Shown: positions 13,944-33,967 of the stretch, piece after piece | Layout of the letters: every line of letters begins with the position of its first letter | Position numbering within the stretch: the first letter of the stretch is position 1 | Source of the DNA: Candidatus Flemingiibacterium merdigallinarum | GTDB taxonomy: Bacteria > Bacillota > Clostridia > Oscillospirales > CAG-272 | Direction of reading: 5' to 3' | Assembly (NCBI GenBank): GCA_904386005.1 | Contig: CAJFKR010000003.1 | Location: 7,587-71,586, forward strand | DNA length: 64,000 nucleotides | Position numbers and translations under genes: made by a program | The notes under the pieces: generated by a model | What the model was told of the DNA's origin: nothing | Databases searched by the model: none | The model's input: only the letters and a program-made list of their open reading frames with translations

Positions 13944-14164
13944 ATTTGTATGAAAAAATCGGTGGGCTGGCAGACGATGAGCATCGGTAATCGAATGTAT
14001 CATAAAGACGCTTTGTTCGCACGATTGGCTCATTGTCTGTCCGCTGTGACCGCGCGTCCACGCATATGTGCCATAAATGCCGTCTCGGCGTTCGGGATAT
14101 TCGCGGCAGGCTGCAAAGCTATTATTTTCCCTTCAAAGTAAATTCTTGGCAGGAGGAAAGGTTA

Positions 14165-17164: not shown

Positions 17165-17193
17165 TCGCAAAACAGTAATCCTCCTGCCAAAAT

Positions 17194-17232
17194 CCGATAT
17201 CCGGTCGGGGAAACCCGGCCGGGGAATATCGG
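17194..17232 (+). other. Intercistronic GC-rich stem-loop with GAAA tetraloop (no U-tract)
   Basis: ccgatat-ccggtcggg-GAAA-cccggccgg-gga-atatcgg gives 16 bp in total. It sits between the binding-protein gene and the first permease gene, where mRNA-stabilising hairpins usually occur. Confidence 0.55.
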
Positions 17233-17279
17233 GCTCTTGACAGTGTATCTACTAAATCTGTTATAAGGAGAGAACAAAC

Positions 17280-18239
17280 ATGTCACAGAACGCAGCGGCG
17301 GTAAACAATTCGCCAAAGCCGACGGCTCGCAAGGACATGACAAAGGCGCAGTGGACGCTGAAGGAAATACGTCGCAACAAAACGGCGTATATAATGATAG
17401 CTCCCTTCATGATTCTGTTCACTATCTTTACTGTCTTCCCTGTTGCGCTGTCGATCATTCTGAGCTTCACGCAGTTCAACTTGCTTGAAGTGCCGGTGCC
17501 TGTCTTCATGGATAACTACATCAGATTGTTCCTTGACGACGATATATTCCTTACCGCCTGCCAGAATACACTCGTATTCGCGGCAGTCACAGGACCGGCT
17601 TCCTACTTCTTGTCCCTGCTCATCGCATGGTTCATAAACGAGCTTACCCCGAAGATCCGTGCGCTTGTAACCCTCGTCTTCTACTCTCCGTCGATTTCGG
17701 GTTCGGTTTACCTCATTTGGGGTATCATCTTCTCGGACGACGCGTACGGTTACGCTAACGCGTGGCTGACCGAGTTCGGTATAATTACCGAGCCTATACT
17801 TTGGTTCCACGATGCAAAATACGTCATGGGTCTTTGTATAGTAGTCGCGCTTTGGACCTCGCTCGGTACCTCGTTCCTTTCGTTCATCGCAGGTCTTCAG
17901 ACCATCGACAAATCGCTTTATGAAGCCGGCGCGGTCGACGGTGTAAGAAACAGATGGCAGGAGCTCTGGTACATTACCCTTCCGACTATGAAGCCGCAGC
18001 TTATGTTCGGTGCGGTCATGTCGATAACCGGTTCGTTCGGATTCGGCGCTATAGTTACCGCGCTCGCCGGTATGCCGTCTGTCGATTATGCGGCGCATAC
18101 GATTATGCACCACCTCGAGGACTACGGCGGACAGCGTTTCGAGGTCGGTTACTCGTCGACTATCGCGGTTGTGCTGTTCGTAATAATGGTCGGTGCTAAC
18201 CTGATAGTCAAAAAATTATTATCGAAGGTAGGACAATAA
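17280..18239 (+). CDS. ABC transporter permease (MalF/LplB-like)
   Basis: 319 aa and multi-TM. EAA loop YEAGAVDGVRNRWQELWYITLPTMKP. AAGGAGAG RBS. Confidence 0.88.
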   Translation: MSQNAAAVNNSPKPTARKDMTKAQWTLKEIRRNKTAYIMIAPFMILFTIFTVFPVALSIILSFTQFNLLEVPVPVFMDNYIRLFLDDDIFLTACQNTLVFAAVTGPASYFLSLLIAWFINELTPKIRALVTLVFYSPSISGSVYLIWGIIFSDDAYGYANAWLTEFGIITEPILWFHDAKYVMGLCIVVALWTSLGTSFLSFIAGLQTIDKSLYEAGAVDGVRNRWQELWYITLPTMKPQLMFGAVMSITGSFGFGAIVTALAGMPSVDYAAHTIMHHLEDYGGQRFEVGYSSTIAVVLFVIMVGANLIVKKLLSKVGQ

Positions 18240-18240
18240 G

Positions 18241-19113
18241 ATGGCAAGATTAAGAACCAGAAAACATAAAGTTGTCCTCAACCGCTCAGTTGGCGGTGAT
18301 ATCGGTATCAACGTTTTGCTCATCCTCATGGGCGCGTTCATGTTCCTGCCGATGCTCTACGTTATAATGCAGTCCTTGAAGCCGCTTGACGAACTCTGGA
18401 TGTTCCCGCCGCGCTTTTACGTTGTAAGCCCGACGCTCAAAAACTTCTCCGACCTGTTCAAGCTGATGAGCACCTCGTGGGTTCCGTTCTCGCGCTACAT
18501 ATTCAACACTGTGTTTATCTCGGTAGCCGGAACGCTCGGCAACCTGCTTCTGTCCTCGCTTGCCGCTTACGCGCTCGCGAAGATAAACTTCCCCGGACGC
18601 GGCTGGATATTCCAGGTCATCGTCCTCTCGCTGATGTTCAACTCAACGGTCACCAGCATTGCAAACTTCTTAACGATGTCGACCCTTCACTGGATTGACA
18701 CCTATCTCGCAATCATCGTTCCGGCATGGTGTACTTCTCTCGGACTTTATCTGATGAAGAACTTCATGGATACCGCGGTTTCTGACGCGGTGCTCGAGTC
18801 CTCACGACTTGACGGCGCGACCGAATTCTACACATTCTTAAAGATAGCGATGCCGATGGTTAAGCCGGCTTGGCTGACACTTATTATCTACTCGTTCCAG
18901 ACTCTGTGGAACGCCGGCGGTTCTATCTACATCTATTCCGAACAGTTAAAGACCTTCAACTACGCAATCAGCCAGATCGTTGCCGGCGGTATCGCCCGTG
19001 CGGGTGCGAGTGCCGCTTCGACAGTTATCATGATGGCGGTGCCGATCACCGTCTTCGTCGTCACTCAGAGTAATATCATTGAGACGATGGGCTCATCGGG
19101 TATGAAGGATTAA
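18241..19113 (+). CDS. ABC transporter permease (MalG/LplC-like)
   Basis: 290 aa. EAA loop LESSRLDGATEFYTFLKIAMPMVKP. It starts 1 nt after the upstream stop. Confidence 0.88.
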   Translation: MARLRTRKHKVVLNRSVGGDIGINVLLILMGAFMFLPMLYVIMQSLKPLDELWMFPPRFYVVSPTLKNFSDLFKLMSTSWVPFSRYIFNTVFISVAGTLGNLLLSSLAAYALAKINFPGRGWIFQVIVLSLMFNSTVTSIANFLTMSTLHWIDTYLAIIVPAWCTSLGLYLMKNFMDTAVSDAVLESSRLDGATEFYTFLKIAMPMVKPAWLTLIIYSFQTLWNAGGSIYIYSEQLKTFNYAISQIVAGGIARAGASAASTVIMMAVPITVFVVTQSNIIETMGSSGMKD

Positions 19114-19124
19114 GGAGGGTAAAT

Positions 19125-21251
19125 ATGAAAAAAATATCAAGAATACTTACCCTCGCGGCACTGGTGATTCTTGTGCTCGGCTGCCTTCCGATCAACGCTA
19201 TCACTCCGTATTCAACTTATACCTACTCAATCGGCGGCTTTTCGCTTATGTCGCCTGACGCATATACACCGGACAGACAGATCGATTCAAACTACATGGG
19301 CGTAACTCCGGCAATCGACGACCCGCGCGATTTGTTCGTAGATCAGTATAAGAATATTTACATCGCGGACGCCGCGAACAACCGTATCGTTGTACTTGAC
19401 AGATATTACAAGCTCAAGTTCTACATAAATACGTTTGTCAACGGACAGGGTGTTCCGGACTCGCTGACCAACCCTTCGGGCGTATATGTCACCGAGGATA
19501 AGATTTATGTAGCCGACACCGACAACAATCGTATTGTAATGTTCGAGCTTGACGGCACCTTCTATAAGGTTATCGAGGAGCCTGACTCGGATGTTTTCCC
19601 GTCCGGTTCTATTTACAAGCCGGTCGCAATCGCAGTCGATAACTATGGTCGTATCTATGTTATTTCGTCGACCACCTACATGGGTGTCATCGCGATAAAC
19701 GAAAACGGAGACTTCCAGGGCTTCATCGGCGCGCAGAAGGTTACGATCGACGCGCTCTCGATAATCTGGAGACGTTTCCAGACTGAAGAGCAGAGAGCTT
19801 TGTCGCAGCAGTATGTATCGACTGAGTTCAACAACATCACCATCGACGACAAAGGCTTCATCTATGTAACCACCTCGTCTATCGACGAGAATCAGCAGCA
19901 GGCGGCTATAAACTCGAAGGACGGAACTTATGCTCCTGTCAAGAAGCTGAACACCGCGGGTTCGGACATCATGAAGCGTAACGGCTTCTTTGGTCCGGGC
20001 GGTGAAGTTAACATCACGAATATCTCGACCGCTGATATCACCGGTCCTTCGAAGATCATCGACGTCGCTATCGGACCGGAGGAGACCTGGTCGATAATCG
20101 ACGAAAAGCGCAGCAAGATTTACACCTATGACTCCGACGGAAATCTTCTGTTCATCTTTGGCGATACTGGACAGCAGCTCGGTAACATTCAGTCTATCGA
20201 AGCTATTGCCTACCTCGATAATGACATTCTCATTCTTGACAAAACTTCCGATAACATCACTGTTTACAGACGTACTGAGTACGGCGATCTGCTGCTTGAA
20301 GCTATCAGAAATACAAATGAACGTAACTACGACACTACGATTGACTACTGGATGGAAATACTTAAGCGCAACAACAACTTTGACTCGGCTTACATCGGTA
20401 TAGGCAAGAGCCTTTACAGAAGCGCTGACTACGAAGAATCGCTTACCTATTACAAATCCGCGTATGACACGGAGAATTACTCCGAATCGTTTAAGGAAAT
20501 CAGAAAAGCTTGGATTTCGAAGTATATCGTTCTGATTCCGATAATCGTAATTGCGATCGTTGTCCTTATCGTATTGTTTAACAAATACGCAGCAAAGCTC
20601 AACAAGAAGACGCAGCTCAAAAAGGGCAGAAAGACCTTCTGGGAAGAGCTTATCTACGCGAACCATGTCATATTCCACCCGTTCGACGGTTTCTGGGATT
20701 TGAAGCATGAATATCGCGGTTCGGTCAGAGCCTCGTTTGTATGGATCGTAATCGCTATTCTGACATTCTATTATCAGAGCGTCGGTACCGGTTATATCTT
20801 CAATCCTCAGGAAGGCGGTTCGACAATATTGGTTCAGCTGACCGCGGTGCTCGTACCTGTACTGCTTTGGACCGTATCCAACTGGTGCTTGACCACTCTG
20901 TTCGACGGCGAAGGCAGCTTCAAGGATATATTTGTCGCAACCTCTTACGCTCTGGTGCCGATTCCGATACTTATTATCCCGTCGGTCATCATATCAAACT
21001 TCTCGCTCGCATCTGAAGCTACCATTATCAATCTGCTTGTCTCGCTCGCATTCATCTGGTGCGGTCTCCTGATCTTCTTCGGCACAATGGTAACTCATGA
21101 CTACACTTTCTCGAAGAATGTCATTACATCCCTCGGCACAATCGTCGGAATGGCTATTATCATGTTTATTGGTATCCTGTTCTCGACGCTGCTTGCTAAG
21201 ATTGTAAGCTTTATTTCGAGTATTGTTATCGAAATCACGTATCGTATGTAA
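19125..21251 (+). CDS. Membrane protein: signal peptide, six-bladed NHL-repeat propeller, TPR-like segment, C-terminal Yip1-type multi-TM domain
   Basis: NHL-like blades are YKNIYIADAANNRIVVLD, EDKIYVADTDNNRIVMFE, YGRIYVISS, KGFIYVTTS, SKIYTYDSDGNLLFIFG and NDILILDKTSDNITVYR. The helical repeats include YYKSAYDTENY. Five hydrophobic helices follow from KYIVLIPIIVIAIVVLIVLF onward (FHPFDGFWDLKHE...). Confidence 0.65.
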   Translation: MKKISRILTLAALVILVLGCLPINAITPYSTYTYSIGGFSLMSPDAYTPDRQIDSNYMGVTPAIDDPRDLFVDQYKNIYIADAANNRIVVLDRYYKLKFYINTFVNGQGVPDSLTNPSGVYVTEDKIYVADTDNNRIVMFELDGTFYKVIEEPDSDVFPSGSIYKPVAIAVDNYGRIYVISSTTYMGVIAINENGDFQGFIGAQKVTIDALSIIWRRFQTEEQRALSQQYVSTEFNNITIDDKGFIYVTTSSIDENQQQAAINSKDGTYAPVKKLNTAGSDIMKRNGFFGPGGEVNITNISTADITGPSKIIDVAIGPEETWSIIDEKRSKIYTYDSDGNLLFIFGDTGQQLGNIQSIEAIAYLDNDILILDKTSDNITVYRRTEYGDLLLEAIRNTNERNYDTTIDYWMEILKRNNNFDSAYIGIGKSLYRSADYEESLTYYKSAYDTENYSESFKEIRKAWISKYIVLIPIIVIAIVVLIVLFNKYAAKLNKKTQLKKGRKTFWEELIYANHVIFHPFDGFWDLKHEYRGSVRASFVWIVIAILTFYYQSVGTGYIFNPQEGGSTILVQLTAVLVPVLLWTVSNWCLTTLFDGEGSFKDIFVATSYALVPIPILIIPSVIISNFSLASEATIINLLVSLAFIWCGLLIFFGTMVTHDYTFSKNVITSLGTIVGMAIIMFIGILFSTLLAKIVSFISSIVIEITYRM

Positions 21252-21274
21252 TAACAGGATAGGAGTTATAGTAA

Positions 21275-24200
21275 ATGAAAAAATTCAGATTATTATCGGC
21301 ATTCCTGACTGTTGTTATGGTTTGGGGTGTGCTTGCAAGTCTACCGGTCTTTGCCGCAGAGGCTGAGACCACCGAAGACGGTGTTCTGATTCCTGGATGG
21401 GACGACGAAGAAGGAGTTCCTACCATCGATTATGTAACACAGCTCTTCAACACTCCCGAGGATAAGCTGGCTACCATGACGAAGTATCTCGATAAGGGAA
21501 ACTTTGAATTGTATGTAGAGCCGATTTCTGGTGAAATTGCGTATGTCAACAAAGTGACCGGACAGATTCTTTTCTCGAATCCATACGACGTCTCCCAGAC
21601 AAGCGCATCGGAATCAATAAAACAACAGCTTCTCTCGCAGATTGAGATCAAGTATACCGACAACGACTCTCAGCTCGAGCTTCACAGCTTTGTTGAAGCC
21701 TGCCAGAGAGGTCAGATCGTCGTAAAGAAGATTAAAAACGGCGTTCGTGTCGAATATACTATGGGTCGTGAAGAGACCCGTAAGCTCGTTCCGAAACAGA
21801 TTGAAAAAACTCGTTTCGAAACCTTGATTCTTGCGAATATCCCCGAAGGTCAGGCGCTCAACAAGATGAACGCGTTTTATCAGCTCAAGGACCCGTTTGA
21901 TCCGAACCTGACAGAGCGTGCAAAGCGTGAGCTGCAGGCGACCTTCCCCATAACAAACGAAATGGCGATCTACATCTTCGACCCGTATGCGTCCGACCGT
22001 GAGCTTAACGAAATCGAAGGCTATATCAAGCAGTACTGCCCTGAATATACGTATGAAACCCTCGAAGAGGACCATACGATGACAGAGTATGAAGGAAAGG
22101 ATGAAGCACCGGTTCTGTTCAGACTTTCGCTCGAATACACGCTCGATGAAGATGGCTCGCTCGACGTCCGTCTCCCCGCGAACGGTATCCGTTTCGACGA
22201 GAGCTCGTTCCAGCTCGACTCGATCACTCCCCTGCCGTGGTTTGGAGCCGGTTCGAGCAATTACAGCGGCTATACATTCATCCCCGACGGTTCGGGTACA
22301 CTCGTCCGTTTTGAGGACGTCGGAACCAAGCCGCTGACCCTGTCCGGTCAGATTTACGGACCTGACTACGCGTATCAGGAAATCACTGGCTTCCAGCACA
22401 AGGAAGTTATGAGGCTTCCGGTATTCGGTGTAGTTGAAACAAATGTAGCACTCCCGATAACAGAAACTGACGCCACCACCGGTGAGACCACGACGACCTA
22501 CGCCGAGATTGAAACGGCAGACGGTGAGATTTACGAGAAAAAGACCAACGGCTTCCTCGCGATTATTGAGGAAGGCGACGCGCTCGCAAGCATCACCACC
22601 GAGCACGGCGGTACAGTTCATTCCTACAACAGTGTCAACGCGTCCTTCTCACCTCGTCCTAAGGACTCGTATAACCTCGCTGAAGCAATTTCGGCCGGTC
22701 AGGACGCTACCTACACGGTCGTTTCCGAGCGTAAATACACCGGAAGCTATCGCATTAAGTACATAATGCTGACTGAGCCCGAGCTCGCGGAAGCTACTGG
22801 TTTTTCCGATTATTATGAAGCATCCTATGTCGGAATGGCTACCGCATACAGAGAATACCTTGAGAATGAAGGAATTCTCACCGACCTTGAAAATGTAAGC
22901 GATTCGATCCCGCTTTACATTGAGTCGTTTGGCTGCCTTGAGGATATAGAGCGCATTCTTTCAATCCCTGTTGAAGTTTTGAAGCCGTTGACCACATTCG
23001 AAGATTTGAAGTCGATGTATACACAGCTCTCTGAAGCCGGTATTACAAACATCAACTTCAAGCTCACCGGATTTGCAAACGGTGGTATGAACGATACCTC
23101 AGCGTATAATGTTAAGTTCGAAAAGGTAGTCGGCGGTAACGACGGCTTCACTGAATTCGTTTCTTATGCACAGTCGAACAACTTTGGCGTATATCCTGAT
23201 TTCGACTTTGCGAACATCGGTATGTTCGAAATGTTCGACGGCGTTTCGATGAGAAAGCACCTCATCAAGACGATGGATAACCGCTACACAAGTAAACGTT
23301 ATTACGACTCGACGCTCCAGTCCTACGAGAGAGGTTACTCGCTCGCGGTATCACCTTCGGTTTATGACTATTTCTACGAGCACTTCAAAGAGGACTACTC
23401 TGATCTCAGCCCGATGGGTCTGTCCGTATCAACTCTCGGTACCGACCTGAACTCCGACTTCGATAAGAAGGAGCCGTACAACCGCGAGGACAGCAAGGAA
23501 TTCACGACCGACCTGCTAGCAGATATTGAAACTGACTACCAAAACGTCATGATCGATGGTGGTAACCTTTACTCGCTGCCGTATGCGGATCATATTATCA
23601 ATGTTTCGCTTGACTCCAGCCGCTTCTCTAATGCAAGTGAAGCTGTGCCGTTCATGGGTATGGTGCTTCATGGTAGTATGAACTTCGCCGGCACTGCTAT
23701 CAATATGGCAGGCGACACCCAGTATGAACTGCTTAAGGCCATCGAAAACGGCGCGTCACTTTACTTCACGCTTTCGATGCAGAACACTTCGCTGCTTAAG
23801 GAAGACATTGAATTCAACAAGTACTATTCAATATCGTTTGATATTTGGTATGAAGAACTTGTTTCGCTTTACAACACGCTCAATGACGCGATCGGTGATG
23901 TTCAGGACAAGAAGATCGTCGACCATGAATTCCTGATTGGCGAGCGCGTACCGTCCGCTGAAGAAATTGAAGCTGACCGTATCGCCGAGGAGGAAGCAAG
24001 ACTTGCTGAGGAAGAAGCTGAAGCACTTGCGGCTGAAAAGGCTGAAAAGAAGGAGCTTCTTGAACAGAGACTCGCTGAACTCGCAGGTGAAGAGTATGAG
24101 CCTGAGGAGCCAGAGGAGGAAGAAGAAGAGGAAGAAGTCGTCACCGAGGGTTACCAGTATACTAAGTATACCTCCGACGACGGCAGAATCGTCAAGGTCA

Positions 24201-24313
24201 CCTACGAAGGCGGAAAGTCTTTCATACTCAACTACAACAACTTTGAAATCACTGTCGTTGATGATGGTACTACCTACACAATCGGCGCACTTGATTTCGT
24301 TCAGGTTGATTAA
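21275..24313 (+). CDS. Secreted 1012-aa protein of unknown function (possibly DUF5696-like), with acidic coiled-coil/poly-Glu tract and a small C-terminal domain
   Basis: Signal peptide MKKFRLLSAFLTVVMVWGVLASLPVFA-AE. I recognise no catalytic motif. The acidic tract is EEIEADRIAEEEARLAEEEAEALAAEKAEKKELLEQRLAELAGEEYEPEEPEEEEEEEE (23960-24137). The DUF label is from memory only. Confidence 0.5.
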   Translation: MKKFRLLSAFLTVVMVWGVLASLPVFAAEAETTEDGVLIPGWDDEEGVPTIDYVTQLFNTPEDKLATMTKYLDKGNFELYVEPISGEIAYVNKVTGQILFSNPYDVSQTSASESIKQQLLSQIEIKYTDNDSQLELHSFVEACQRGQIVVKKIKNGVRVEYTMGREETRKLVPKQIEKTRFETLILANIPEGQALNKMNAFYQLKDPFDPNLTERAKRELQATFPITNEMAIYIFDPYASDRELNEIEGYIKQYCPEYTYETLEEDHTMTEYEGKDEAPVLFRLSLEYTLDEDGSLDVRLPANGIRFDESSFQLDSITPLPWFGAGSSNYSGYTFIPDGSGTLVRFEDVGTKPLTLSGQIYGPDYAYQEITGFQHKEVMRLPVFGVVETNVALPITETDATTGETTTTYAEIETADGEIYEKKTNGFLAIIEEGDALASITTEHGGTVHSYNSVNASFSPRPKDSYNLAEAISAGQDATYTVVSERKYTGSYRIKYIMLTEPELAEATGFSDYYEASYVGMATAYREYLENEGILTDLENVSDSIPLYIESFGCLEDIERILSIPVEVLKPLTTFEDLKSMYTQLSEAGITNINFKLTGFANGGMNDTSAYNVKFEKVVGGNDGFTEFVSYAQSNNFGVYPDFDFANIGMFEMFDGVSMRKHLIKTMDNRYTSKRYYDSTLQSYERGYSLAVSPSVYDYFYEHFKEDYSDLSPMGLSVSTLGTDLNSDFDKKEPYNREDSKEFTTDLLADIETDYQNVMIDGGNLYSLPYADHIINVSLDSSRFSNASEAVPFMGMVLHGSMNFAGTAINMAGDTQYELLKAIENGASLYFTLSMQNTSLLKEDIEFNKYYSISFDIWYEELVSLYNTLNDAIGDVQDKKIVDHEFLIGERVPSAEEIEADRIAEEEARLAEEEAEALAAEKAEKKELLEQRLAELAGEEYEPEEPEEEEEEEEVVTEGYQYTKYTSDDGRIVKVTYEGGKSFILNYNNFEITVVDDGTTYTIGALDFVQVD

Positions 24314-24333
24314 TCAAAAGAGAGGTGTAATAA

Positions 24334-25308
24334 ATGAACAGCGAATTAAAGCTCAATAGTGTCCCCGCTGCTAAAAAGCGCAAGCGTGGTGCCTCTCTTG
24401 ATAAGCGCAAGGCGCGTGCGGGATGGATGTTTGTCATGCCGTTCGTCCTCAGCTTTATCATCATCTACCTGCCGATCATCATTGACTCGATAAAGTACAG
24501 CTTTAACAAGATCAAGATCGGTCAGGGCGGCGGCTACACTCTCGAATTCGTCGGCTGGGAAAACTACCAGGAAGCGTTGTTTGTCGACCCTCAGTTCGTT
24601 CAGACTCTGACTTCCGGTATCCAGCAACTGATCTTTGACATCCCGGCAATAGTCATATTCTCGCTCTTTATGGCAGTGCTTCTGAACCAGAAAATGGTTG
24701 GACGCGCCGCGTTCCGTGCAATCTTCTTTATTCCGGTTATTATCTCGACCGGTATCATTGACAAGATTGACCAGGCAAACACCATGCTCGACTACATGGA
24801 GAACGTCGAAGAGGGTATCAACGACGGTTCCGGACAGAACACGACCAACGAAATCTTGTCCGCGGTCGATATCGAGCGTTTGTTTGACAACATGAAGGTT
24901 GGTACCGAGCTGGTTGACTACGTTGTAACGATGGTTAACAACGTCTACAACATCATCAACCGTTCAGGCGTACAGATGCTGATTTACCTCGCAGGTCTGC
25001 AGTCCATCTCGCCGTCGATTTACGAATCGTGCGATATAGACGGTGCGACCGCATGGGAAACCTTCTGGAAGATCACCTTCCCGATGATCAGCCCGATGAT
25101 TCTCGTAAACGCGATTTACACAGTCATCGACTCGTTTACATCACAGTCCAACCAGGTTATGACTTACATTTCGAATGTATATGACCAGGCTGGAGGAAAC
25201 GTGCTCAGCTCGGCAATGGCATGGATTTACTTCCTTATCGTTCTTCTCATAATCGGTTTGGTTGCCGCACTGCTCAGCGCGTACGTATTCTACCAGAAGC
25301 GCGATTAA
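24334..25308 (+). CDS. ABC transporter permease (MalF-like), second pair
   Basis: 324 aa. Basic N-terminus, then TM helices. EAA loop YESCDIDGATAWETFWKITFPMISP. Confidence 0.85.
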   Translation: MNSELKLNSVPAAKKRKRGASLDKRKARAGWMFVMPFVLSFIIIYLPIIIDSIKYSFNKIKIGQGGGYTLEFVGWENYQEALFVDPQFVQTLTSGIQQLIFDIPAIVIFSLFMAVLLNQKMVGRAAFRAIFFIPVIISTGIIDKIDQANTMLDYMENVEEGINDGSGQNTTNEILSAVDIERLFDNMKVGTELVDYVVTMVNNVYNIINRSGVQMLIYLAGLQSISPSIYESCDIDGATAWETFWKITFPMISPMILVNAIYTVIDSFTSQSNQVMTYISNVYDQAGGNVLSSAMAWIYFLIVLLIIGLVAALLSAYVFYQKRD

Positions 25309-25321
25309 TGGAGGGTAAAAA

Positions 25322-26380
25322 ATGAATTCTCAACAAGCACCTCAGGCTCCCCGCGTAATGAAGGAGAGCAAAAACAAAATCAGAGTTGAGTTTGAAAGAA
25401 CCCCTCTAAAAGAAAGATTAAAGGCGAAATTCTTAAACCTTAACTTTCTTACAAATGTCGTCTGGGTTATTTTCAGACTGGTTCTGCTTATCGGTATTTC
25501 GTATGTCATTCTATTCCCGTTCTTCGCGAAGATCTCCGGCTCATTTATGAGCCGTGAGGACTTCGTTGACGTAACGGTCAAGCTGATACCGAAATATCCT
25601 ACGCTTGACACTTACAGAGCTATCATCCAGGAAAATGATTATTTCGAAGCTCTTCTGAACACGACGATCCTGTCGGTTCTCTGCGGCATTATCCAGACAT
25701 TTATGTGCTGTGTAATCGGTTACGGTCTTGCGAAGTTTAAGTTCAAAGGAAGCAAGCTTATATTCTTCCTTGTTATCTTCACAATGGTTGTTCCGCATAG
25801 AACACTCCAGCTCTCGATGTTCATGAAGTTCAGATACTTCGACATTCTTGGTATATTCAATCTCCTCGGAGGCGGAGTATTCGAAGGATTAAAAGTTTTA
25901 CCTTTCACATCCCTGAACCTGAACAATACATATTGGCCTCTGGCACTTCTGTCGATTGGCGGACTTGCGTTTAAGAACGGTCTGTACATCTTCATGATGC
26001 GTCAGTTCTTCCGCGGTGTACCGGATGAGCTTGAAGAGTCGGCATACATCGACGGAAGCGGCACTTTCAGAACCTTCATTCAGATTATACTTCCGCTTTC
26101 CGTGCCGATGATGATCACTATCTTCCTGTTCGCGTTCTCGTGGCAGTGGACAGATAACTTCTACACTACGATATTCTTCACAAAAGCCTCGATGGTTCTG
26201 ATGCCGGATATCATCGCGATACCAAAGACATTGGACACCGCATATGCGGCGCAAAACCTGTATGAATCGGCGATACGTAATACCTGCGGTCTGCTGATAC
26301 TCGCTCCTCTGCTCATAATCTACATCTTCATGCAGAGATTCCTTATCGGCGGTATCGAGCGTTCTGGTATTGTCGGTTAA
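25322..26380 (+). CDS. ABC transporter permease (MalG-like), second pair
   Basis: 352 aa. EAA loop EESAYIDGSGTFRTFIQIILPLSVP. Confidence 0.85.
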   Translation: MNSQQAPQAPRVMKESKNKIRVEFERTPLKERLKAKFLNLNFLTNVVWVIFRLVLLIGISYVILFPFFAKISGSFMSREDFVDVTVKLIPKYPTLDTYRAIIQENDYFEALLNTTILSVLCGIIQTFMCCVIGYGLAKFKFKGSKLIFFLVIFTMVVPHRTLQLSMFMKFRYFDILGIFNLLGGGVFEGLKVLPFTSLNLNNTYWPLALLSIGGLAFKNGLYIFMMRQFFRGVPDELEESAYIDGSGTFRTFIQIILPLSVPMMITIFLFAFSWQWTDNFYTTIFFTKASMVLMPDIIAIPKTLDTAYAAQNLYESAIRNTCGLLILAPLLIIYIFMQRFLIGGIERSGIVG

Positions 26381-26400
26381 GAAATCATATCTAAAATTAA

Positions 26401-26430
26401 AAGAGACAGTCGAAAGGCTGTCTCTTTTAC
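26401..26430 (+). terminator. Rho-independent terminator ending the ABC locus
   Basis: Stem aagagacag / ctgtctctt with loop tcgaaagg. The run of T's overlaps the 3' arm and is followed by ttac. Confidence 0.75.
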
Positions 26431-26503
26431 AATATATTAAATTGATATAGGTAGCATATTTAAAAGGTGAAACGCTATATCGCATTTATATACATAAAAT
26501 ATA

Positions 26504-26528
26504 CCCCCTCGAAGCTGCTTCGAGGGGG
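26504..26528 (-). terminator. Rho-independent terminator after carB-dapF
   Basis: 11-bp stem ccccctcgaag / cttcgaggggg with a 3-nt loop. The minus-strand reading is followed by a T-rich tatatttta. Confidence 0.7.
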
Positions 26529-26542
26529 TGATCATTTTATAA

Positions 26543-29500
26543 TCAGATTATCGTTCTGCCTTCGTAGACTTTGACCGCGCCGCCGGAAAGGAATACAGCT
26601 TCGTCCGTGTAACGAATCTTGAGGTCGCCGCCTTTGAGCTTTACAGTGATTTCCTCGTTCTTCGGACAGTAGCCGTTTTCAACCGCCGCGACAACCGCCG
26701 CACAAGCACCGCTGCCGCAGGCAAAGGTTTCGCCCGATCCGCGCTCCCAGACGCGCATCTTCAAGGTCGTTCGATTCAAAACCTTAATAAATTCGGTGTT
26801 GACGCGCTCGGGGAAAAGCGGGTCGTTTTCGAACTTCGGTCCGATGACTTCGAGATTCAAATTGTCGAGCGGAGCATCGAGATCTTCGCTGAATACGACG
26901 CAATGCGGATTGCCCATTGATACGCAGGTAATGCGGTAACGCCCGTCAGCGACCTGTACCGGTACGCCTATCGCGGTGTTTCCGGCGAGTTTGACCGGTA
27001 TAAGCGCCGGCTTTAATTCAGCCTTGCCCATATCGACTGTCGCCCAGCTTACTTCGCCGTTGACCTTTTCGACGGTTACCTTGCGGACGCCGCTCAAGGT
27101 TTCAATGGTAACGCTGTCGCCGTCGACAAGCTTGTTGTCAATCATATATTTCGCGATGCAGCGCGCCGCGTTGCCGCACATCTTGCCCTCGGTTCCGTCA
27201 AGGTTGAACATACGCATCTTGACGTCAGCCTTGTCTGACGGATACATCAGTACGACGCCGTCTCCGCCGATGCCGAAGTGGCGGTCGGCGAGCCGTATGG
27301 ACAGTCCCTCAGGATTGTCGATCTTCTGGTTGAAGCAGTTGAAGTAGATGTAGTCATTGCCGCAGGCTTCCATCTTGGTGAATTCAAGTGAAGCCTTTTC
27401 GGTGCGCATATCGTTGATGTCAACAAGCTCGGTGCAGGCCTGCGAATAACGGCTCTTCAGGCAATCGGCGACCGCGTTAGCGGTGTCGATCGAAGTCAGA
27501 CAGGGAATCGCGCGCTCGACTGCTTTACGGCGAATCTTTACGCTATCGCGCGACGGAATGCGTCCTTTTGCGGAGGTCGAAATCACATAATCGATCCAAC
27601 CGCTCTCGATGAGCTTGAGCGTGTTGTTTTCGCCCTCGTGAATTTTGTCGACGACCTTGACTTTCATGCCGTAATCTTCGATAACTTTCGCAGTACCACG
27701 GGTAGCGTATAGCTCAAAGCCGAGATCATAATAACGCTTCGCTACCTCGCCGACCTCCGACTTGTCACTGTCACGTACCGTGATGAATACGCCGCCATGC
27801 TTTTTAAGCGTGTAGCCGGCTGCGATCAGTCCTTTGTAGAGCGCTTCTTCACGAGTGCTTGCCAGACCGAGGACTTCGCCGGTCGATTTCATCTCGGGTC
27901 CGAGGTGATTGTCGACGTTCATCAGCTTTTCGAATGAGAATACCGGAACCTTGACTGCGACATACGGCGAGGTTTTATACAGACCGACACCATAACCCAT
28001 GTCTTTGAGCTTTTCACCGAGCATAGCGCGGGTTGCGAGGTCGACCATCGGCACGCCGGTGACCTTGCTGATATAGGGAATCGTGCGCGACGAACGCGGG
28101 TTGACTTCGATTACATAGAGCTGGTCATGGTAAATCAGATACTGAATATTGACAAGTCCCATGATTTTGAGCGAGACTGACAGCTTCTTCGTGCAGTCGA
28201 TGATGTCGTGGCGGAGCTTGTCGTTGATGTTCCACGCCGGATAGACGGCAATCGAGTCGCCCGAATGGATACCGGTGCGCTCGACGTGCTCCATGATTCC
28301 GGCGATGAGGATGTCCTCGCCGTCGCAGATTGCGTCGACTTCGAGCTCAATGCCCATCAGATATTTGTCGATAAGCACCGGATTCTCGATGTTGTGCGAC
28401 AGGATGATCGCCATGTATTCCTTGATGTCGTCGTCGGTGAACGCAATTATCATATTTTGTCCGCCGAGGACGTAGGACGGGCGCATAAGCACCGGATATC
28501 CGATCCGGTTCGCGATTTCAAGCGCTTCCTCGGTGGTCATGACCGTATAGCCAACCGGGCGCTTGATGTGGTGCTCCTCGAGCAGCTCGTCGAAGCGCTC
28601 GCGGTCCTCAGCGGCGTCGATCGAGTCGGCGCTCGTGCCGAGAATGTTTATATTCTGCTTTGATAAGAACTTGGTCAGCTTGATGGCAGTCTGACCGCCG
28701 AACGCGACGACGACGCCGACCGGATTTTCGGTCTCGATGATATTCATTACATCTTCGTTTGTCAGCGGCTCGAAGTAGAGTCGGTCAGCGGTGTCAAAGT
28801 CGGTCGAAACCGTCTCGGGGTTGTTGTTGACGATTACGACGTCATATCCGGCTTTCTTCAGCGACCAGACGCAGTGTACCGAAGCGTAGTCGAATTCGAT
28901 ACCCTGACCGATGCGGATAGGTCCGGCGCCAAATACGATCACCGTTTTCTTGTCGGGCGATTTGTGCTCGTTGATGAATTCGGTAGCTTCGTTCTCGTCG
29001 TCATATGTCGAATAGAAGTAAGGAGTCTCGGCGCTGAATTCGGCCGCGCAGGTGTCGACCATTTTGTATACGGCGCGGCGGTGCATACCCTCGGGCAGCG
29101 GTTTGCCGGACAGCTCTTCGATTACCTTGTCCGGGAAGCCGAGCTTTTTCGCGTCGAGGTAGAGCTCACTTGTCAGCGGTTCGGTCGCGAGTATCTGTTC
29201 GAATTCGGCGAGGTGGCGCAGCTTGCAGAGGAACCACTCGTCAATCATAGTGCATTCATGTATGTGCTCGACCGAAACTCCGCGGCGAAGCGCTTCATAT
29301 ACAATGAATATCCGCTCGTCGTCAATTTCATGCAGACGTGCTTCAATCTCGTCGTCGGTCATATCGCGGTATTTCGGCGCGGACATACTCGACATACCGA
29401 TTTCGACTCCGCGCACGGCTTTCATCATCGCCTGCTCGAAGCTCGTGCCGATAGCCATTACCTCGCCGGTCGCCTTCATCTGCGTGCCGAGCGTGCGCTT

Positions 29501-30604
29501 AGCATAGACAAATTTGTCAAACGGCCACTTCGGGAACTTGACGACGACATAGTCGATCGACGGCTCAAAGCAGGCGTAAGTCTTTTTTGTGACCGCGTTG
29601 ACAATTTCAGGAAGCGTGTATCCGATTGCGATTTTGGCAGCGACCTTGGCAATCGGATATCCGGTCGCCTTTGACGCGAGCGCGGACGAACGCGATACAC
29701 GCGGGTTGACCTCGATTACCGCGTATTCGAAGCTCTCGGGATGGAGCGCGAACTGCACGTTGCAGCCGCCTTCGATTTTCAGCTCGTTGATAATAGCGAG
29801 CGCGGCTGAACGCAGCATCTGATATTCCTTGTCGGACAATGTGACAGCCGGAGCGATGACGATGCTGTCGCCGGTGTGGACGCCGACCGGGTCTACATTC
29901 TCCATTGAGCAGATCGTGATTACGTTTCCGGCGCTGTCGCGCATTACTTCGAACTCGATCTCTTTCCAGCCGGATACGCACTTTTCGACCAGCACCTGAT
30001 TTATTGGCGACAGTCGAAGTCCGGTCTCGGCGATTTCGATAAACTCCTCCTCGGTGTTGGCAATGCCGCCGCCGGTGCCGCCGAGCGTGAACGCCGGACG
30101 GATGATAAGCGGATAGCCGTTCGAGTGAGCGAACGCGAGCGCGGCTTCGATGTCATTGACAACGGTAGACGGAATGACCGGCTGACCGATTTTCATCATC
30201 GTGTCCTTGAACGCCTGACGGTCCTCGGCTTTGTCTATAGTCTCGGGATTTGCGCCGAGCAGCTTGACTCCCATTTTGTCAAGGAAGCCTTCTTTGGCGA
30301 GCTGCATACTCAAGGTCAGACCGGTCTGACCTCCGAGCGTCGACAACAGGCTGTCGGGACGCTCTTTTTCGATGATGCGCTTGATGGTGGGGAGGGTCAG
30401 CGGCTCGATATATACCTCATCCGCCATTGCGTTATCGGTCATTATCGTCGCAGGGTTGGAGTTGACGAGTACGACCTCAAGACCGTCTTCCTTTAACGCG
30501 CGGCAGGCCTGTGTTCCCGCGTAGTCGAATTCGGCTGCCTGTCCGATTACAATAGGACCGGAACCGATAACCATGACCTTTTTTAACGCTTTATTGAGCG
30601 GCAT
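26543..30604 (-). CDS. carB: Carbamoyl-phosphate synthase large subunit fused in frame to diaminopimelate epimerase (1353 aa)
   Basis: Residues 1-~1065 are a complete CarB: two ATP-grasp halves ([19 protein letters not shown] / [18 protein letters not shown]) plus an MGS-like tail. Residues ~1070-1353 are a complete DapF ([46 protein letters not shown]). No stop codon separates them. Confidence 0.85.
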
Positions 30605-30605
30605 A

Positions 30606-31703
30606 TTATTTATCCTCCTTCATCATTGCTATAAATCTATCGAACAGAAACTCGGTGTCAAGCGGACCGGCGGCGGCTTCGGGGTGGAACTGAACCGTGA
30701 ACGCCGGAATCGACGTGTAGTCTATTCCCTCGCAGGTGCCGTCGTTGCCGTTTACAAAGCTCATCGACGCGCCCTCGGGTAGCGAATCGGGCAGGATTTC
30801 GTAGCCGTGGTTCTGGCTCGTGATGAACACGCGCTTGTCGCTCTGACGGATTGCCGGCTGATTTTCGCCGCGGTGTCCGTATTTGAGCTTTTTCGACTTC
30901 GCGCCCATAGCGAGCGCGAGCAGCTGATGACCGAGGCAGATGCCGAATATGGGTATTCTATATTCGCAGAGCTTTGTCATCTCTTGAATTATCAATGGAT
31001 TGTCAGCCGGGTCTCCAGGGCCGTTCGAGAGCATGATGCCGTCCGGCTTCATCGCGACAATATCCTCTGCCGTCGACGACGCGGGCATTTTTACTACCTC
31101 GCAGCCGCGCGCGAGCAGCTGACGGCGGATATTCTCCTTTGTGCCGAAATCCCAGAGGACGACGCGGTATTTCTTATCTTCGGGAGTCATGATTTCGGGC
31201 TGCTTGCAGGTCACGCGCTCGACCGCGTCGCGTATCACATAATCGTGCAGCTCGGAAAGCGTTTCGTCAAGCTGTTCGGGAAGCGAATATGTGATCTTGG
31301 CGTTCATGACGCCGACCTCACGCACGATGCGGGTCAGCGCGCGAGTGTCGATGTCGGACACGCCCACGACCTTATGCTCTTTCAAAAAAACGTCAAGAGC
31401 ACCCTCGCTTCTGAAATTGGAAGGCTCTTGACATATATCGCGGACAATATAGGCGGCGAGTGCGGTGTCTTTACATTCAAAATCAGACGGGATCACACCG
31501 TAGTTGCCGATGAGTGGGAATGTCTGGATGACGACTTGACCTAAAAAGCTGGGATCGGTCAGCGTCTCAAGATATCCGGACATTGAAGTGGTGAAAACAA
31601 GCTCGCCCATGGTTTCGGCTTCGTAACCGAACGACCTGCCGCGAAATACCTTACCGTTTTCGAGTATAAGGTAAACGGGTTTTGTGCGCATATTCATGAT
31701 CAT
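30606..31703 (-). CDS. carA: Carbamoyl-phosphate synthase small (glutaminase) subunit
   Basis: Class-I amidotransferase motifs GICLGHQLL and VQFHPEA. The stop lies 1 nt from the carB ATG. The start could be 31703 or 31697 (AAAGGA precedes both). Confidence 0.92.
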
Positions 31704-31791
31704 CCTTTCATAAATATCGAGGCTGCCGAAGTCGTCCGCGGCTCGCGTCGACTTCGTCTCCCCGTAAAATTCTTATCCTATCATTCATAAT

Positions 31792-31821
31792 ATTATATCA
31801 CAAAAAGCATATTCATGTCAA
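31792..31821 (-). promoter_or_regulatory. carAB promoter (extended -10)
   Basis: The minus strand reads TTGACA (31821-16), 18 nt, TGaTATAAT (-10 at 31797-92). The ~90-nt leader contains the hairpin gaagtcg...cgacttc but has no U-tract. Confidence 0.55.
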
Positions 31822-32037
31822 TGCGTAATAATGTATAAATATAAATTAAATGTGTGACAAACGATAATGATGAATGACTAATGGCGTATAATAATTCGCG
31901 GTATTCGGTTTTTACTGTTATAATCAAGAATTCGCGACCGCGAAACTTACGTCATAAACGGTCAAACGACGTCATAAGCATCGAAGCCAGAATACTCGCG
32001 GTTTATAGCCTTAAAATACATATTAAGTCATGACACC

Positions 32038-32937
32038 TCAAATCTTGAGCGTTTTCTTCTTTTTCGACGCGTTCATCGAGCGGTCGAGGTAGGGCTTGAT
32101 TTCACTGTACAGCCGGCTGGTGACAATTGAAAACAGAATATCGACAATACAGAGCTGACCTATGCGCGAGCTCATCGCGCCGCTGCGGATGAAGCTTTCG
32201 TCCGAAACCATGAACAAATTTACGTCGCAGGCGGAGGAAAGCGAATTTTTACCGTGCTTGGTGATACTGATAGTCGACGCGCCGGTAGATTTTACAATAT
32301 CAAGCGTTTCGAGCAGGTCGCGCGTTTCACCGGTGTAGGAGATGAATACGGCGACGTCGTCGCGCGACAGGTTCGACGCGGTAAGTATCTGCAAATGCGG
32401 GTCGATTTGCGCGGTCGCGATTTTGTTTATCCGCAGGAATTTGTTCTGCGCATCGAGCGCGACGAAGCCCGAATTGCCGACGCCGTAAAAGTCAATGCGT
32501 CTGGCGTGGCAAAGCAGATCGACTGCGCGAGTAAGCTCGTTGTAGTCCATTATATCGACTGTATTTTGTATGGCTTTGATATTATTCTCCGAAACCTTTG
32601 CGACAATTTCAATGGTGTTGTCGTTCGGATTGATGTCTTTATAGGAAAGCTCGCCGCCCTCATTTTGCATAATATCTGCGTTGAGGTACATACACAGCTC
32701 CTTGTAGCCGCTGTATCCGAGCGTTTTGCATAGCCGGACTACCGTCGGTTTACTTGTTTGACATCTGTCCGCAAGCTCGCTTATCGGCAGCCTGACGACC
32801 TCATTCGGATTGTCGATGATGTATTTTGCGATTCGCTTTTCACTTGCGGAGAGACGTTCGTAGCTCTCTTTGATATTGAGATAACAGCGCAGAAGAAACA
32901 CTCCTTTTTGCTCTGATTTACGGCAAAATAATGCCAA
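32038..32937 (-). CDS. RpiR/MurR-family transcriptional regulator (HTH + SIS domain)
   Basis: HTH_6-like region LSASEKRIAKYIIDNPNEV...ISELADRCQTSKPTVVRLCKTLGYSGYKEL. SIS domain IDFYGVGNSGFVALDAQNKF. The start codon (TTG at 32937) is uncertain. Confidence 0.8.
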   Translation of the reverse strand: MALFCRKSEQKGVFLLRCYLNIKESYERLSASEKRIAKYIIDNPNEVVRLPISELADRCQTSKPTVVRLCKTLGYSGYKELCMYLNADIMQNEGGELSYKDINPNDNTIEIVAKVSENNIKAIQNTVDIMDYNELTRAVDLLCHARRIDFYGVGNSGFVALDAQNKFLRINKIATAQIDPHLQILTASNLSRDDVAVFISYTGETRDLLETLDIVKSTGASTISITKHGKNSLSSACDVNLFMVSDESFIRSGAMSSRIGQLCIVDILFSIVTSRLYSEIKPYLDRSMNASKKKKTLKI

Positions 32938-33085
32938 AAGTTTTATATTGTGGAACTATGGAACTTAGAATAGAAATATACTTGAAAATTATGCGATAAA
33001 ATCCCATAATATCAGAATTATCATCGCTTCAAACTAAAAAATACTGATATATGGAACTTGTGAAACTAATTCTGTAACCGCGAAA

Positions 33086-33967
33086 TCACAGCAGACCAAG
33101 CCTTGAAAAACAGTCGCAGGCCGATCCAAGCATATGCGCGCTTTCGAGCCGCTGCGAGCCAGTGATTTGTTCGAGCGATCCTATCTCTTTCAGCCGCGCT
33201 TCGAGCGGCTTTTTGAACAGCGGCAGCGCACGGCTGATTTGACCGCCGAGAATCAGGATTTTCGCTTCGACCAGCTCGAGATAGGGCGCGATAATTTCGC
33301 CGAGCATATCTCCGGTCGTTTCGTATACACGACGCGCCTCGGAGTCGCCCGCGTACGCGCGGCGCTCGACCTCCTTTGCGCTGACGTCTACCTTCGAGTA
33401 ACGCTCGGATATGCCGCGCCCCGAGATGAAATCCTCTGCAATTCGACCTCGGTAGGGCAGCTGCCATATGCTGTATAGCGGCGAGCCGTCCGGCTTGCGC
33501 AATACAACGCCGTCTTTCATCGTCGCGAAGCCAAGTCCGGTGCCGATCATTACTCCGGCGGCGTTCTTGTAGTCGCCATAGGGCGAGTGCCAGAGCTCGC
33601 CGGTCAGATATGCCGCCGAATCGTGTATGAAGGTGACCGGCAGATCAACGATTTCCTGTATCCACGGGCGGAGCGGCAGCTTGTATATCGCCTTGTATTT
33701 GTGCTGCATCAAGCTGTAACCATTTTCATAGTCGAATGGTCCGGGGGTGTCGATAGCCACTGCTGACAGCTCGATGTTTTGCCGCGCGGCGTTCGCGAGC
33801 TGGGTCTCGAGCGTGCGAATGTAGCCTTGGTGTACCGCATCGGCGTCAAGGTCACTGTTTGCTTCGGTCGAATAGATTGAGCCGTCGACGATCTCGGCGT
33901 CGTTTGAAACGATCGCCGACTTCATAAACGTGCCGCCGGCGTCGATTGCGATTAGGTATTTTTTCAT
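33086..33967 (-). CDS. ROK-family sugar kinase
   Basis: GGAG lies 6 nt before the ATG at 33967. MKKYLIAIDAGGTFMKSAIV is the ATPase phosphate-1 motif, and AGVMIGTGLGFA is also present. The tracked start at 34045 is over-extended. Confidence 0.7.
   Translation of the reverse strand: MKKYLIAIDAGGTFMKSAIVSNDAEIVDGSIYSTEANSDLDADAVHQGYIRTLETQLANAARQNIELSAVAIDTPGPFDYENGYSLMQHKYKAIYKLPLRPWIQEIVDLPVTFIHDSAAYLTGELWHSPYGDYKNAAGVMIGTGLGFATMKDGVVLRKPDGSPLYSIWQLPYRGRIAEDFISGRGISERYSKVDVSAKEVERRAYAGDSEARRVYETTGDMLGEIIAPYLELVEAKILILGGQISRALPLFKKPLEARLKEIGSLEQITGSQRLESAHMLGSACDCFSRLGLL

Follow-up and report, generated by a model that had tools for sequence, protein, structure and literature searches.

In a 64,000-nucleotide stretch of DNA from Candidatus Flemingiibacterium merdigallinarum (contig CAJFKR010000003.1; hereafter the window), one open reading frame (ORF) on the reverse strand (26543..30604; 1353 codons followed by TGA) joins a carbamoyl-phosphate synthase (CPS) large subunit, CarB, to a diaminopimelate (DAP) epimerase, DapF. 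The analysis of this carB::dapF gene argues for a single polypeptide of ~150 kDa that belongs to an old, vertically conserved CarB-DapF fusion family and that would be bifunctional in the form encoded here, a reading to which we assign a probability of roughly 0.8. The fusion is genuine, old and widely distributed rather than peculiar to this genome, and it represents a variant, as yet uncharacterised, of two thoroughly studied enzymes. Its invariant junction, together with the repeated and fusion-specific loss of a catalytic cysteine under continued constraint, points to a second, CPS-related role of DapF. A full-text search of the literature, including systematic reconstructions of amino-acid biosynthesis in gut bacteria, found no CarB-DapF fusion, and the proteins carry only the database names 'carbamoyl-phosphate synthase large subunit' (the sole name of the window protein, NCBI HIX92210.1) or 'diaminopimelate epimerase, partial'.

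Architecture and conservation of the fused gene

The ORF was delimited by ORF listing and translation and its domains were identified by Pfam, NCBIfam and PDB searches. The CarB module (residues 1-1066; 27407..30604, reverse strand) comprises two ATP-grasp halves, an oligomerisation domain and an MGS-like allosteric domain (residues 953-1037; 27494-27748, reverse strand). Searched against NCBIfam, the fusion protein scored 1507 bits with the CarB equivalog NF003671 (cut-off 599; residues 1-1054, profile positions 1-1051 of 1058) and 1464 bits with TIGR01369 (cut-off 1027), while Pfam detected CPSase_L_D1 and CPSase_L_D2 twice each, CPSase_L_D3 and MGS in the CarB part. Escherichia coli CarB (PDB 1bxr) was colinear with residues 1-1056 (1050 bits). 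Unfused CarBs of relatives are 1063-1097 amino acids in length (n = 20), and in the alignment the closest of these terminate in '...[DE][LM]VDI[TCS]x[IL]', precisely where M1066 lies; the extra ~287 residues of the fusion are therefore the DapF module.

This module (residues 1073-1353; 26546..27388, reverse strand) contains both DAP_epimerase repeats, seen as two stretches of Pfam PF01678. It matched the DapF equivalog TIGR00652 with 276 bits (cut-off 114.65; residues 1074-1351, profile positions 2-268 of 270), or 281 bits when the isolated module was used alone. The PDB search aligned DapF 2otn to residues 1071-1345 of the fusion protein, and the module matched this structure at 3.7e-74 with both Cys motifs in register (MCGNAARC at residue 1142 and FACGSGACA at residue 1294). 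The nearest stand-alone clostridial DapFs share 53-56% identity with it. The initial annotation, made from the sequence of this DNA, had described a single 1353-amino-acid ORF holding a complete CarB through its MGS-like tail and a complete DapF with both Cys motifs; all of this is borne out, every sequence that it quoted lies where it was placed, and alignment to orthologues shows both halves at full length with the CarB part ending where unfused CarBs end. Both halves are unambiguous members of their families and it is their combination that is unusual. The CarB part is predicted to be a complete CPS large subunit that partners the adjacent CarA.

At least 22 contigs (24 on record), drawn from several ENA assemblies and the NCBI metagenome-assembled genome (MAG) GCA_019115025.1, encode an identical 1353-amino-acid protein with the same neighbouring genes. 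A junction-spanning query (residues 900-1353) retrieved more than 100 proteins (60-89% identity) in which MGS and DAP_epimerase are found in a single polypeptide. Scanning the GTDB species-representative genomes yielded 35 loci that match from CarB on into DapF, 33 of them with a complete gene, and each of these 33 is a single uninterrupted ORF of 1340-1429 amino acids; family counts of 34 below refer to these 33 further species-level fusions plus the window protein. Among 45 loci without a DapF module (43 without any DapF match; the other two are the disrupted fusion loci L009 and L010), no dapF was found within up to 6 kb downstream and no intermediate with carB and dapF adjacent but separate was encountered. 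A lost stop codon or a frameshift that joined two adjacent genes is, a priori, what most often produces odd fusions in MAG-derived sequence, and such errors do occur within carB of two relatives, as a 100-N scaffold gap in L010 and a deletion of ~11 nt in L009. Against an artefact of this kind stand the identical protein on at least 22 contigs of different assemblies, the same uninterrupted ORF with identical junction spacing in 33 other species, junction residues conserved at the protein level, and the 45 loci lacking a downstream dapF, which leave no 'adjacent genes' state available to be mis-joined; its probability is negligible. The fusion predicted by the initial annotation thus stands, not as a one-off curiosity, but as one member of a large family found across related genomes.

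Shorter hits (583-735 amino acids) had raised the possibility that a split CarB fused to DapF is a general feature. This was rejected: they are truncated gene calls on full-length loci, their lengths being due to the scaffold gaps or local errors noted above. In L009 (5900-6010) the deletion lies between KKAGY and VNNNPE and divides carB into ORFs of 585 and 735 amino acids. The length of 735 amino acids recurs in eight separate 90%-identity clusters among the junction-spanning matches, and this group may reflect either a genuine, lineage-specific division of CarB or an assembly error that recurs. Separately, in a Treponema MAG (L054:133-6639) and a Chthonomonas MAG (L065:1369-6465) carB is split into two genes that encode residues 1-547 and 543-1054 and lie ~2-3 kb apart.

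The junction itself, RTEKAS (residues 1067-1072; 27389..27406, reverse strand), has the same length in every fused homologue. Stand-alone clostridial DapFs start with MKLKFTKMQG, so the true spacer is ~4 residues and the junction ~4-6 residues overall. R1067 is kept in 32 of the 34 fusions, as is K/R1070, the gap between the CarB and DapF alignments is exactly 36 nt in all 33 complete GTDB loci, and no junction indel was found in any fused sequence aligned. Two in-frame Met codons flank this segment, M1066 (27407-27409, reverse strand), whose position is occupied by Leu in 16 of 34 homologues, and M1078 (27371-27373, reverse strand), a conserved internal 'K-M' residue of DapF that is replaced by Leu in some homologues; F1075 and K1077 are invariant across the fusions. 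An AlphaFold2 model of residues 900-1353 gave a mean predicted local distance difference test score (pLDDT) of 86.5 with both domains confident, a pLDDT of 63-68 at the junction and a predicted template modelling score (pTM) of 0.65.

Catalytic cysteines and evolution of the DapF module

Cys1143 (codon TGC, 27176..27178, reverse strand) and Cys1296 (codon TGC, 26717..26719, reverse strand) of the window protein correspond to the first and second catalytic thiols, Cys73 and Cys217 of E. coli DapF. Thirteen of 14 compared positions are identical to the E. coli enzyme (N11, N64, C73, G74, N75, N157, H159, N190, E208, R209, C217, G218 and S219), with Q44 alone differing (Gly). The identical positions include all ten DAP-binding residues (N11, N64, G74, N75, N157, N190, E208, R209, G218 and S219), which are 86-100% conserved across the fusion family, and Y1347, at the position of the E. 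coli dimer-interface residue Y268, is F or Y in 34/34 fusions. Positions were mapped onto the E. coli DapF sequence as we take it to be. Its Cys73/Cys217 numbering agrees with the published account of these two residues and of Y268, from which their roles are taken (PMC6061791).

The genomic context in relatives would fit an active epimerase. In the nearest Ruminococcus-type genomes the fusion is followed by dapL (TIGR03542, 507 bits, cut-off 365), whose product makes the substrate of DapF: dapL lies directly downstream in L010, L012 and L017, within ~350 nt downstream in L022, and nearby in L009 and L016. Across relatives, the fusion is found either immediately upstream of dapL or at the end of an argD-argF-carA operon. 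In E. coli, ArgD also acts as DapC. The earlier statement that the two enzymes belong to unrelated pathways was accordingly too strong. Given both Cys, the DAP-binding residues and the nearby dapL of relatives, the window protein is expected to combine epimerase activity with its function as a CPS subunit; most likely its DapF module has kept the conversion of LL-DAP to meso-DAP, within the DapL variant of the lysine/peptidoglycan pathway. Within the window the fusion was the sole DapF match, and no second dapF was present.

Elsewhere in the family the first catalytic Cys is frequently missing. At the position of Cys1143 only 13 of the 34 species-level fusions still have Cys; of the other 21, 16 carry Ala, two Ser, two Gly and one Thr. 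The second Cys is kept in 32. In all, 22 members do not retain both residues, namely the 21 without the first and the Christensenellales SARD02 protein, which has Ser at the second. Among the ~120 closest stand-alone DapF representatives, the first Cys is never missing and 116 have both Cys; representatives without it proved, where long enough to judge, to be pieces of fusions or derived from them. On the CarB tree, parsimony required four changes in 96 of 100 bootstrap trees and three in the remaining four, which gives at least three to four independent losses.

The Cys-less modules nevertheless appear constrained. Conservation at the 12 other catalytic or ligand positions reaches 96% in these modules, whereas the domain as a whole averages 64% (permutation p < 1e-4). 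The median ratio of non-synonymous divergence (dN) in DapF to that in CarB is much the same in fusions that retain both Cys (class I, 1.66) as in those in which the first or the second catalytic Cys is replaced (class II, 1.58). Only this relative ratio and the least diverged pairs were used in the comparison of substitution rates; in the least diverged Cys-less pairs omega, the ratio of dN to synonymous divergence (dS), is 0.16-0.33. No replacement catalytic base co-varying with the Cys loss was found in the DapF module, the columns that discriminate the Cys-less forms lying mostly in CarB and following phylogeny. Many of the Cys-less genes stand at the end of argD-argF-carA operons. Mutagenesis of the Haemophilus influenzae enzyme reportedly showed that Ala at the first-Cys position abolishes two-base epimerisation. 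Since constraint persists after loss of this Cys, selection would maintain on CarB a DapF-shaped module, probably one that binds a ligand, for a reason other than epimerisation.

The allosteric domain also differs between the Cys-less groups. The Oscillibacter-type group (L027-L034, L036-L038, L040, L042, L044 and L053) has additionally lost the 'STSxKGR...IRR' motif of the MGS-like domain, which we take to be the nucleotide-effector site, and the Treponema group retains it.

Carriers of the fusion are labelled Ruminococcus, Ruminococcaceae, Oscillospiraceae, Oscillibacter, Christensenellales (including a complete 1.8-Mb chromosome) and other Clostridia, and comprise both MAGs and isolates; the fusion was also found in one Selenomonadaceae MAG and in four Treponema/Spirochaetaceae gut MAGs of different studies. 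In a neighbour-joining (NJ) tree of CarB (1047 columns), the 34 fused proteins and two DapF-less CarBs formed one clade with 99% bootstrap support, sister to unfused CarBs of Oscillospiraceae and Ruminiclostridium, and the Treponema group (100% bootstrap) was nested within Clostridia. The single 99% clade supports one origin of the fusion followed by vertical descent, transfer into gut Treponema and rare secondary loss, the two nested DapF-less CarBs being apparent cases of the last. One of these belongs to Clostridium transplantifaecale (L047:3229-9456), whose carB has an N-terminal extension of MQQIEI repeats and an aberrant C-terminal tail of 31 residues, and is followed by pyrG and dapL.

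Expression, rival explanations and significance

Upstream of the fusion gene lies carA (30606..31703, reverse strand), which encodes the small, glutaminase subunit of CPS (ORF of 365 amino acids; NF009475, 442.9 bits, cut-off 221; TIGR01368, 425 bits; Pfam CPSase_sm_chain and GATase). Gene calls on the identical contigs place its start 2-4 codons later, giving 361-363 amino acids. The carA stop codon (TAA) and the carB ATG are 1 nt apart, and the Shine-Dalgarno site of the fusion gene, GAAGGAGGA (30613..30621, reverse strand), lies within the 3' end of carA. Its anti-Shine-Dalgarno duplex energy of -12.4 kcal/mol was the strongest among the starts of 27 long ORFs examined in the window (median -8.7 kcal/mol; background within ORFs -2.8 +/- 2.4). 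No Shine-Dalgarno site precedes M1066 or M1078, where the duplex energies are +0.3 and +0.4 kcal/mol, and neither a promoter nor a terminator was found at the CarB-DapF junction. A putative promoter ~90 nt upstream of carA (31792..31821, reverse strand), predicted from its consensus match, consists of TTGACA, an 18-nt spacer and a TG-extended TATAAT (12/12 matches). Starting 14 nt past the stop codon of the fusion, a bidirectional hairpin resembling an intrinsic terminator (26503..26529; 12-13 bp, 8 GC pairs, T runs on both strands) is common to the fusion and a convergent ATP-binding cassette (ABC) permease gene. An Rfam scan of 26000-33200 for leaders or attenuators returned no match at E <= 1. 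The best reading of these signals is one carA-carB::dapF transcript with one translation product from carB::dapF.

In related loci, carA, identified there by position and size rather than by profile, lies upstream of the fusion in 26 of 33. A contig resembling R. bicirculans (L010:3678-4000) has ~320 nt between carA and carB::dapF, as opposed to 1 nt in the window, and its carB starts with GTG. Directly upstream of the putative carA promoter, on the same strand, the window encodes an RpiR-family regulator (32038-32937; HTH_6 and SIS domains). Convergent with the fusion gene runs a long cluster on the forward strand (14033-26380) that encodes a solute-binding protein, four BPD_transp_1 permeases, a 708-amino-acid Yip1/NHL-like protein and a 1012-amino-acid DUF5696 protein, and that is probably a glycan-uptake locus.

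According to the reading that we favour, carA-carB::dapF would be transcribed from the consensus sigma-70 promoter to the strong terminator and translated from the carB Shine-Dalgarno site only. The fusion would have arisen once in Clostridia, when the last residue of CarB was joined to the first strand of DapF through a spacer of ~4-6 residues, and would then have spread by descent and by transfer into gut Treponema. The DapF module would also have turned into an accessory domain, structural or ligand-sensing, of this CPS subfamily. Such a second, non-catalytic role in CPS is probable because relatives keep the module, its ligand pocket and the constraint on it after losing the first catalytic Cys; with so many members lacking this residue, a description as two independent enzymes on one chain would be incomplete.

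Several observations weigh against this reading. No dapL was found in the 64-kb window, where the search for the DAP pathway covered only DapF and DapL. The omega values are rough, given that dS is near saturation (~1 or higher) or distorted by codon bias in most pairs. All trees are NJ only, and Selenomonadaceae and Treponema are the taxonomic labels of the MAGs as deposited. The DapF-only NJ tree (273 columns) lacks resolution, with no single split that unites the fused modules (0% bootstrap), and it was not used to place the origin. Some 'stand-alone' representatives nested among the fused modules (P0142 and P0210) proved to be fragments of fusions. Finally, the AlphaFold2 model does not support a fixed interface between CarB and DapF, because the pLDDT at the junction is only 63-68 and the pTM 0.65.

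The low junction pLDDT could also indicate exposure to proteases, which, with the two in-frame ATG codons at the junction, would suit the production of two proteins from one ORF by cleavage or by internal initiation at M1066 or M1078. We regard this as very unlikely. The initial annotation had argued against a separately initiated dapF from the lack of a Shine-Dalgarno site at either Met, and the duplex energies uphold it (+0.3 and +0.4 as against -12.4 kcal/mol at carB), as does the absence of a junction promoter. Moreover, M1066 is Leu in almost half of the homologues, a start at M1078 would delete the first beta-strand with the invariant F1075 and K1077, and mere co-transcription would not conserve the frame and the exact junction length across two phyla. 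It is likewise improbable, if somewhat less remote, that the window DapF is regulatory or structural only and that a separate dapF or ddh supplies meso-DAP. Such a role would agree with the 21 relatives that evidently gave up two-base epimerase chemistry yet retain the module, and with the lack of an adjacent dapL in the window, but not with the presence in the window of both Cys and 11 of the 12 other checked positions (Q44 being Gly), nor with the conservation of the two Cys in 112 and 116 of 120 close relatives, nor with dapL immediately following the fusion in the nearest Ruminococcus-type genomes.

A neutral frozen accident, in which two independent enzymes share a chain with no functional coupling, deserves more weight, although we still consider it doubtful. 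The two reactions have no metabolite in common, AlphaFold2 gave no confident interdomain packing, and DapF evidently fuses readily, as with a Mur ligase in P0268 (see below). Neutrality would, however, leave unexplained the invariant junction length with its conserved linker residues R1067 and K/R1070, the mere two secondary losses within the fused clade, the retention of the module with Cys replaced by Ala after transfer into Treponema, and a ligand pocket and constraint that outlasted at least three to four losses of a Cys that none of ~120 stand-alone DapFs has lost. A more specific and tentative proposal, which we regard as possible, makes the DapF module an integral part of a distinct CPS subfamily, in which it would act as a DAP-binding or dimerising sensor on the allosteric domain. 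Such a sensor would couple the supply of carbamoyl phosphate (for arginine and the pyrimidine pool linked to uridine diphosphate) to the status of cell-wall and lysine precursors. The window protein would then be a still-catalytic moonlighting form, and the Cys-less proteins of Oscillibacter-like Clostridia and gut Treponema would be pure pseudo-enzyme regulators, derived from it at least three times.

The fusion has consequences for annotation, enzymology and evolution. The window protein is deposited as plain CarB and fragments of its relatives as partial DapF, and pathway reconstructions of many gut Clostridia may therefore miss dapF or, in Cys-less forms, count a dead epimerase, which affects predictions of lysine and meso-DAP auxotrophy. 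An allosteric domain bearing a conserved extra ligand-binding module would be a new architecture for a well-studied allosteric CPS and raises the question of whether DAP regulates it. With at least three to four independent losses of the same residue and a transfer between phyla, the family also offers a natural series from bifunctional enzyme to pseudo-enzyme domain in which to study how non-catalytic roles arise in fused enzymes.

Comparison with known enzymes and fusions

The fusion protein shares with E. coli CarB (PDB 1bxr/1jdb) the same order of five domains, including the MGS-like domain, and a carA directly upstream; it differs from canonical CarB in the 287-residue DapF module added past the normal C-terminus. 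Compared with stand-alone DapF (2otn from Bacillus anthracis, 4ijz/5ygu from E. coli and 2gke from H. influenzae), this module is full length with both pseudo-symmetric repeats and has both Cys motifs, the DAP-binding residues and the dimer-interface aromatic residue. Unlike these enzymes, it has no start codon of its own, being fused to CarB, and within its family the first catalytic Cys is dispensable. E. coli DapF dimerises tightly through Y268 and, in a moonlighting role, binds and activates RppH (PMC6061791), a precedent for DapF as a non-catalytic partner that modulates another enzyme. In contrast to the fusion, that association links DapF non-covalently to an unrelated Nudix enzyme and does not require DapF to give up catalysis.

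Other proteins also combine DapF with a further cell-wall or amino-acid function. The Chlamydia-type bifunctional DapF/glutamate racemase (NF038284) was ruled out as an identity for the window protein (88.9-93.5 bits against a cut-off of 350). P0268 (776 amino acids) consists of DapF and a complete Mur ligase and so joins consecutive steps, unlike CarB-DapF. In P0165, DapF is preceded by an N-terminal region that resembles DHH only weakly, below the threshold. P0125 (L091:6001-7539), a 512-amino-acid protein present on four contigs beside mraZ-rsmH-ftsI, contains a carbamoyl-phosphate-binding domain of the OTCase/ATCase type, the second half of the CarB MGS domain and a DapF whose first Cys is replaced by Gly, and looks like a deletion derivative of a CarB-DapF fusion.

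Among eukaryotes, CPS occurs fused in CAD (GATase-CPSase-DHOase-ATCase), in fungal URA2 and in CPS I/III; human CPS1 (PDB 5dot) was among the PDB matches of the window protein. As in these proteins, the core of the CPS large subunit is extended by further enzyme domains on one chain. They combine CPS with its own subunit or with consecutive steps, whereas the partner here comes from lysine and peptidoglycan synthesis and sits C-terminal to the allosteric domain. The glutaminase domain of CPS I has lost its catalytic Cys and is retained as a structural or regulatory part, a fate that the Cys-less DapF modules of the fusion family, by analogy, may parallel.

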